Assembly: GCF_053078305.1 (NCBI RefSeq)
Contig: NZ_CP166879.1
DNA length: 64,000 nucleotides
Direction: 5' to 3' (one strand)
Made by a program: the position numbers and the translations under genes. Shown here one piece after another: positions 35,865-36,080 of this stretch. The notes under the pieces were generated by a model. The model made no database searches. It was not told the origin of the DNA and was given only the letters and a program-made list of their open reading frames with translations. Numbering within the stretch: the stretch's first letter is position 1; each line of letters opens with the position of its first letter.

Positions 35865-36080
35865 ATGGAACTGCATTGTCCACAATGTCAGCATGTGCTT
35901 GATCAGGATAACGGCCATGCGCATTGCCCATCCTGCGGGGAAGTTATTGAAATGAAAGCTCTTTGCCCGGACTGCCATCAACCGTTGCAGGTGTTAAAAG
36001 CCTGCGGTGCGGTAGATTACTTCTGTCAGCACGGGCATGGCTTGATATCGAAAAAACGCGTTGAATTCGTGCTGGCTTAA
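35865..36080 (+). CDS. yfgJ: zinc-ribbon protein YfgJ
   Basis: ORF track 35844..36080; recognised start [10 protein letters not shown]; CxxC pairs. Confidence 0.75.

Follow-up and report, generated by a model that had tools for sequence, protein, structure and literature searches.

Convergent yfgJ and xseA genes

The window, that is, the whole 64,000-nt stretch of DNA analysed here, carries yfgJ and xseA in a tail-to-tail arrangement in which the two coding sequences meet at a TTAA tetramer:

35865..36080, + strand: yfgJ coding sequence, encoding a 71-aa double zinc-ribbon protein (open reading frame, PDB, Pfam and the RefSeq 216-nt CDS)
36077..37447, − strand: xseA coding sequence, encoding the 456-aa exonuclease VII large subunit (open reading frame, Pfam and RefSeq)
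36077..36080, no strand assigned: TTAA tetramer containing the stops of yfgJ and xseA, orthologous to the hairpin-loop TTAA of 12 other Enterobacteriaceae species
37462..37489, − strand: sigma-70-like promoter match, TCGACT-16-TAGAAT (consensus only, 9 of 12 positions)

Translation of yfgJ starts at the ATG at 35865, which follows a GGAGG Shine-Dalgarno motif at a distance of 7 nt. A GTG at 35844, given as the start in the mechanical list of open reading frames, was rejected in favour of this GGAGG-preceded ATG, which also agrees with the RefSeq 216-nt CDS. The 71-aa product matches the structure of E. coli YfgJ (PDB code: 2JNE) with an E value of 2e-44 over its full length, through the last residue, and it also matches the Salmonella structure (PDB code: 2JRP) and the Pfam family PF07191 (Zn_ribbon_6). 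The notion that yfgJ is an annotation artefact was likewise rejected, given the solved structures, the Pfam family and the orthologues found in 178 genome loci. XseA contains the Pfam domains PF13742 (residues 10-103) and PF02601 (residues 126-440), and its last 16 residues form a Lys/Arg-rich tail outside the Pfam domain. The C-terminal tails of both YfgJ and XseA are conserved in relatives.

Transcription of xseA toward the junction could originate at the promoter match at 37462-37489, which lies upstream of xseA in the divergent region between guaB and xseA and belongs to a class of matches that is no more numerous here than in shuffled sequences. Near the 5′ end of xseA, Term-seq of MG1655 recorded two 3′ ends internal to the reading frame, 20 and 57 nt in (2634252 and 2634289, + strand; PMC7815308). 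These correspond to about 37428 and 37391 on the − strand of the window, suggesting premature termination or processing near the 5′ end.

The 68-nt der-yfgJ spacer contains a separate hairpin at 35818-35848 (CCCTCTA-N6-TAGAGGG plus GCCA/UGGC; −19.7 kcal/mol, z −3.4), placed directly upstream of the yfgJ Shine-Dalgarno sequence and without a U-tract on either strand. Directly after this hairpin, K-12 has one extra base compared with the window.

Shared stop codons

The stop codon of yfgJ is the TAA at 36078-36080 on the + strand, and that of xseA is the TAA formed by the reverse complement of TTA at 36077-36079. With the stops counted, the two genes have the bases 36077-36080 in common. The letters at 36070-36080 read tgctggcTTAA, and the sequence around 36070-36086 is gtgctggcTTAAtgaacc. 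The 4-nt overlap of the convergent stops that the first-pass annotation had claimed is thus confirmed by the letters of the window, the open reading frames and RefSeq. The same overlap is annotated by RefSeq in the closest genome, that of strain A16 (99.9% identity over an 801-nt query), and in a K-12-like strain. A 101-nt probe spanning the junction has an unbroken match in 3667 of 5426 complete E. coli genomes, each at an identity of at least 94.6%.

Overlaps of this kind are well documented. Four nucleotides is the modal length of overlap, with the stop-sharing tetramers TTAA, CTAA, CTAG and TTAG, and 58 convergent overlaps were counted in E. coli (Lillo and Krakauer 2007, PMC2174442). Any terminators of such pairs necessarily lie inside coding sequence, and intrinsic terminators are present for only 20% of the E. 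coli genes that overlap convergently (PMC2174442). The yfgJ/xseA pair shows exactly the configuration of the 4-nt class, with no difference in kind: the tetramer is TTAA and both genes are genuine open reading frames. It is a real, annotated and ordinary member of the commonest class of convergent overlap. What comparison with related genera adds is that the tetramer is, in those genera, the apex of a conserved palindrome. The overlap and its consequences for the transcripts are already known, and what is added here is this palindrome and the setting of the junction in an insertion hot spot.

A 64-kb region of strain A16 spanning most of the window contains eight convergent gene pairs, two of which overlap, namely xseA/yfgJ and csiE/hcaT; the spacings of the eight are 37, 137, 38, 92, −4, 30, 30 and −9 nt. 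The 9-nt overlap of csiE (−) and hcaT (+) is located at 71-79 of the window, TCATGCTGA, where the csiE stop is the complement of TCA at 71-73 and the hcaT stop is TGA at 77-79; hcaT is truncated by the start of the window. The csiE/hcaT pair is likewise listed as an excludon (PMC12288877).

Termination signals at the E. coli junction

That no intergenic terminator separates the two genes, as had also been noted at first, was borne out by a pattern scan of 35400-37700, in which 0 terminator-like sites were found on either strand, compared to 2.8 expected in shuffled sequences. A scan of 35000-37800 against Rfam at E ≤1 gave 0 matches, and therefore no known sRNA or riboswitch is involved. The junction folds weakly (−12.1 kcal/mol, z −1.84, both strands folded). 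An intrinsic terminator of the yfgJ strand, i.e., a GC-rich hairpin followed by a U-tract, is absent from the junction. For a bidirectional terminator, the pattern scan showed no − strand site at the junction, either in the window or in L037, a related locus with a terminator-like site on the yfgJ strand (see below); the tail on the xseA strand is TTGAATTC or ACGAATTC. The features of the + strand at and beyond the yfgJ stop are:

36050..36104, + strand: remnant of an ancestral palindrome (fold, alignment and pair counts)
36107..36143, + strand: hairpin with a 10-bp stem (36107-36116 with 36134-36143) and a 17-nt loop (fold)
36081..36245, + strand: G-poor, C>G, pyrimidine-rich tract (base composition)
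36165..36175, + strand: approximate Rho termination peak (~36169), a coordinate transferred from MG1655 2635510 (−)

The remnant at 36050-36104 retains the outer stem, AAAAAACGCG / CGCG(A)TTTTTT, and has lost the inner one, which reads GCTGGC-TTAA-TGAACC in the window versus GCCGGT-TTAA-ACCGGC in relatives. Its T-runs are the complement of XseA Lys codons.

The hairpin at 36107-36143 begins 27 nt past the yfgJ stop and lies within the xseA codons for G-W-I and I-Q-P. Its core is a perfect 9-nt inverted repeat, and its folding energy of −15.3 kcal/mol (z −4.97) was reached by 0 of 200 shuffles. The sequence directly after it is UCUUCCAGACG, not a U-tract. The hairpin is absent in all 12 relatives with the 4-nt overlap and in the UTI89 allele. 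Speculatively, it could protect the 3′ end of a Rho-terminated yfgJ mRNA.

Past the yfgJ stop and antisense to the 3′ end of xseA, the tract at 36081-36245 (~165 nt) has a G content of 15-20% and a C/G ratio of 1.3-1.9, compared to a C/G ratio of 0.7-0.95 further in. The composition of a Rho-dependent terminator, an untranslated, C-rich and G-poor RNA after the stop, is thus found here, with the reservation that a hairpin lies inside the tract. From its base composition, we infer that this tract is a likely Rho loading (rut-like) region for the transcript running in the der/yfgJ direction. It shares with Rho-dependent terminators (PMC7815308) the G-poor, C>G downstream RNA and a bicyclomycin-sensitive region ~90 nt past the stop, whereas it differs from a classical unstructured rut site in the stable 10-bp hairpin at 36107-36143 within it.

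Published transcript data

In MG1655, a Rho termination region at 2635510 (−), antisense to xseA, has a Rho score of 3.80 and a p value of 2.3e-6 (Adams et al. 2021, eLife, PMC7815308, supplementary file 2). Upstream and downstream of this position, there are 110 and 17 reads in the absence of bicyclomycin, versus 126 and 74 in its presence (PMC7815308). The position could be placed ~89-90 nt past the yfgJ stop by means of the xseA start at 2634232, which was derived from the internal 3′ ends given in the same study; the K-12-like locus is colinear with the window, without indels and with two base differences between the junction and the Rho peak. The coordinate is coarse in that it comes from 800-nt coverage windows, and it refers to a K-12 strain grown in LB only, with low read numbers. 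The Term-seq data of that study assign no 3′ end to yfgJ, and the entries for xseA consist only of the two internal ends mentioned above (PMC7815308). According to these published K-12 data, transcription in the yfgJ direction enters xseA and is mostly stopped by Rho within ~90 nt.

The xseA-yfgJ pair is also among the 165 convergent excludons of MG1655 that were called in at least 50% of 58 RNA-seq data sets (ExcludonFinder, NAR 2025, PMC12288877). For genes with overlapping reading frames, such a call is near-automatic and carries little information. In a classical excludon, the antisense overlap is long and the expression of the two genes has been shown to be reciprocal, whereas the overlap toward xseA is curtailed here by Rho at ~90 nt. 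Reports of reciprocal expression or RNase III processing of xseA/yfgJ were not found in the literature searched.

A palindrome shared with related genera

One genome per species was scanned with a YfgJ alignment, which yielded 80 loci, and the stops of yfgJ and xseA were located mechanically in each. The identical 4-nt overlap is present in 12 species representatives, including Citrobacter youngae, C. portucalensis, Lelliottia, Yokenella, two Silvania, Pluralibacter and Enterobacter soli. The stops are spaced by 1-6 nt in ~17 loci and by 13-126 nt in ~9 loci, and 1.2-3 kb of cargo separates them in ~22 loci. The spacers of 13-126 nt hold REP-like elements (L028, L030, L041, L072 and L083) or, in L061, a canonical hairpin terminator.

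In all 12 of the overlapping species, the junction has the form GCCGG(T)-TTAA-(A)CCGGC-TTTTTCTT, a palindrome centred on the shared stops, and one of the 12 has TTAG in place of the loop TTAA. An outer stem, AAAACGCG/CGCGTTTT, encloses the palindrome. For these junctions, the computed folding energy is about −23 kcal/mol, and the z scores range between −3.7 and −4.4. In L037, the + (yfgJ) strand of the junction fits the terminator pattern with 8 pairs and a 4-nt loop, as AAGCCGGTTTAAACCGGCTT followed by the tail TTTCTTGCGC. The T-run of the relatives corresponds, on the opposite strand, to the codons for the C-terminal lysines of XseA, whose tail ends in ...AKKTRKKKPV* in the relatives and ...VKKSRKKVH* in the window. 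The tails are homologous, and the TTAA tetramers are therefore orthologous.

Across the TTAA junction, E. coli and the relatives can be aligned position by position. On the yfgJ side, E. coli has CTGGCT versus CCGGTT in the relatives, and on the xseA side the last two codons are remodelled and 3 nt shorter. These two changes together abolish the inner stem.

Counts of pairs support the palindrome as a feature of the sequence, with 91.5% of cells paired compared to 32-59% in slid controls, and the outer stem (helix 1) is paired in 94.6% of cells. In a covariation test of the palindrome, 0 pairs had changed on both sides. The palindrome is thus real in the sequence, but since there are no compensatory changes, selection at the level of RNA is not demonstrable; its conservation could stem from the need to preserve the proteins encoded on the two strands instead of from selection on the RNA fold.

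The palindrome of the relatives looks like a predicted terminator embedded in both gene ends. Its 12 carriers share with coding-embedded and bidirectional terminators the GC-rich hairpin followed by a T-run. The 33-nt spacer of L061, filled by a canonical A-tract/hairpin/T-tract terminator, likewise fits this class. Compared to such terminators, the hairpin is lost in the window, and the relatives have a good U-tract only on the yfgJ strand, so that the predicted element would be unidirectional.

Islands and cargo at the junction

In E. coli UTI89 (L004, 3434-15118), an 11.7-kb segment lies between yfgJ and xseA in the order yfgJ, sinH, sinI, an 8-kb adhesin gene and xseA, and a REP abuts the xseA stop. 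Homology between UTI89 and the window ends at 36081 and resumes at 36141. About 1700 genomes match the megablast query only in part; the yfgJ-sinH junction is found in 1677-1681 of 5426 genomes (~31%) and the fused junction in ~68%.

For the sinH-sinI-ratA (ila/CS54-related) island, the window junction represents the unoccupied (empty) site. The ila cluster GR17, 11.4 kb in size, is located at xseA..yfgJ and is derived from the 25.3-kb Salmonella CS54 island, the insertion site of which is xseA-yfgK (PMC12928451, PMC9861973). The position in the window corresponds to that of the ila/CS54 locus, with the island genes sinH, sinI and ratA absent from the window. The flanking genes are thus the same as at the ila and CS54 sites, whereas the window has the empty site, hence the abutting and overlapping genes.

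The two E. coli haplotypes are hyperdivergent only beside the junction, with 50-58% identity at 35800-35993 and 53-79% at 36077-36270, compared to 96-100% in der, and their YfgJ proteins are only 65% identical. Direct repeats or a target duplication are not visible at the island ends.

The gene sinH also follows yfgJ in Pseudocitrobacter, other Escherichia species, Superficieibacter and one Citrobacter. It adjoins yfgJ in all the other Escherichia species representatives sampled, namely E. albertii, E. whittamii and two other species, and also in the GTDB representative of E. coli. In other genera, the cargo at yfgJ/xseA is a protealysin-type peptidase with emfourin, an MFS transporter, or both. 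Cargo of ~1.4 kb (L012, L018, L027 and L055) consists of an M4 protealysin-type metallopeptidase gene and an emfourin inhibitor gene, and cargo of 1.2 kb (L051, L066 and L068) encodes an MFS transporter. A 1.7-kb cargo is present in Salmonella diarizonae and arizonae (L026 and L078), and a further group has 2.7 kb (L054, L009, L011, L016 and L052). The yfgJ/xseA junction looks like a recurrent insertion hot spot.

Proposed explanation and alternatives

The explanation that we consider probable is an inherited tail-to-tail abutment in which a yfgJ terminator is embedded in the relatives, and in which the stem has decayed in E. coli and Rho stops transcription ~90 nt into xseA. The TTAA overlap would accordingly be the inherited abutment of two unrelated housekeeping genes rather than a special regulatory device. 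In an ancestor of many Enterobacteriaceae, the last codons of the genes (...CCG GTT TAA on either strand) would have formed a GC-rich palindrome with a TTAA loop, and a U-tract would have come from the strand opposite the codons for the C-terminal lysines of XseA. Palindrome and U-tract together could have constituted a small intrinsic terminator of yfgJ, lodged within the 3′ coding ends of both genes. The E. coli haplotype would have lost the inner stem as the 5′ half changed from CCGGTT to CTGGCT and the 3′ half was remodelled and became 3 nt shorter. Because of this loss, der/yfgJ transcription would pass the stop codon, thereby exposing the untranslated, G-poor, C>G tract and leading to Rho termination ~90 nt into antisense xseA. 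Transcripts of xseA would likewise run into antisense yfgJ.

This explanation draws on the overlap, the lack of a terminator, the palindrome of the relatives and the base composition, all of which were observed directly, and it takes the Rho dependence and the overlap of transcripts in RNA-seq from the published K-12 data. The palindrome would function as a terminator in the relatives, and the overlap would have little or no regulatory effect in E. coli.

A more ambitious form of the same idea is tentative, and we think it rather less likely to hold than to fail. It supposes that the last codons of both genes made up an ancestral terminator, that Rho and the hairpin at 36107-36143 replaced it in E. 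coli, and that the palindrome serves as a landing site for cargo. According to this form, both proteins end in Pro-Val-stop from opposite strands, the Lys tail of XseA doubles as the U-tract, and the palindrome is kept across several Enterobacteriaceae genera. The cargo landing there would comprise the ila/CS54 island, the protealysin-emfourin pair, the MFS transporter and the REPs.

Alternatively, the overlap might be the scar of a deletion, in which an Escherichia ancestor had the sinH-sinI-ratA island and its loss fused the two stops by chance. The presence of sinH next to yfgJ in all other Escherichia representatives sampled, the position of Salmonella CS54 at xseA-yfgK and the hyperdivergent flanks of the E. 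coli haplotypes (50-79% identity vs 96-100% in der) are in line with such an event. However, the base-for-base alignment with the junctions of Citrobacter, Lelliottia and Yokenella extends to the flanking codons and the Lys-rich tail of XseA, and a random deletion is unlikely to recreate an orthologous TTAA junction. Moreover, an ancestral empty-site allele that was imported or retained through homologous recombination explains the flanks at least as well, and neither direct repeats nor a target duplication can be seen at the island ends. Since the junction is orthologous to those of other genera, the scar was downgraded to an unlikely origin.

The overlap might instead be maintained for regulation as a functional excludon or antisense switch, in which convergent transcription across the stops makes xseA and yfgJ (or der-yfgJ) mutually repressive, be it that the RNA polymerases collide or that RNase III cuts the RNA duplex. 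The pair does appear in the convergent list of MG1655 in at least 50% of the 58 transcriptomes (PMC12288877), there is no terminator between the genes, and transcripts that read through into antisense xseA can be detected and increase under bicyclomycin (PMC7815308). However, overlapping reading frames necessarily yield overlapping coverage, and Rho removes most of the read-through within ~90 nt. The 11.7-kb island parts the two genes in ~31% of E. coli genomes, and in many genera REPs, terminators or cargo of 1-3 kb lie between them, with no sign that the arrangement must persist. A search for data on reciprocal expression found none, and yfgJ and xseA are not known to be linked in function. 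Of what the first-pass annotation had suggested here, overlapping transcripts are thus upheld by the published MG1655 data, and nothing was found that shows either transcriptional interference or antisense regulation. A regulatory role of the overlap is possible but unsupported, and the switch is an improbable account of the locus.

Very improbable is a cryptic, Rho-independent intrinsic terminator active in E. coli, formed by the outer palindrome (AAAAAACGCG...CGCGATTTTTTT) or by the hairpin at 36107-36143, for although the outer stem is conserved (helix 1, as counted above), T-runs are present at 36086-36090, 36098-36104 and 36117-36122 and the hairpin is very stable, the junction folds no better than shuffles and its pairing uses up the U-tract, UCUUCCAGACG rather than a U-tract follows the hairpin, the pattern scan of 35400-37700 is without a match, and the published drop in coverage is sensitive to bicyclomycin (PMC7815308).

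The overlap has little weight for E. coli biology, as it is annotated, belongs to the commonest class and has its consequences recorded in published genome-wide tables. The junction would nevertheless offer a natural series of termination solutions at one place, comprising an embedded hairpin, a spacer terminator and a REP, with Rho alone in the haplotype of the window. In practical terms, engineering of either 3′ end by deletion or tagging, for instance in xseA knock-outs for recombineering or prime editing, changes the stop of the other gene as well as the der/yfgJ termination region.

Other features of the window

Two segments of the window are missing from strain A16, which is otherwise 99% identical. 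The first, of 3.9 kb at ~40722-44653 between guaA and yfgI, encodes two adjacent GmrSD-like proteins of 426 aa (GmrSD_N and DUF7834) and 650 aa (GmrSD_N and GmrSD_C), and its best PADLOC matches are the HEC-06, Orf5 and SspE-like models. This segment is probably a type IV restriction or defence islet. The second, of 4.9 kb at ~21829-26683 between pbpC and ndk, is a DMSO-reductase-type operon consisting of genes for a 793-aa molybdopterin oxidoreductase, a 209-aa 4Fe-4S subunit, a 273-aa membrane anchor and a 284-aa ferredoxin-like protein.

In addition, the sseA-sseB region at 12243-13498 contains an internal repeat of ~575 bp, with 86-87% identity to the annotated duplicated timP/sseB-fragment region of strain A16. 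This points to variation between strains in the copy number of the timP small-toxin locus.
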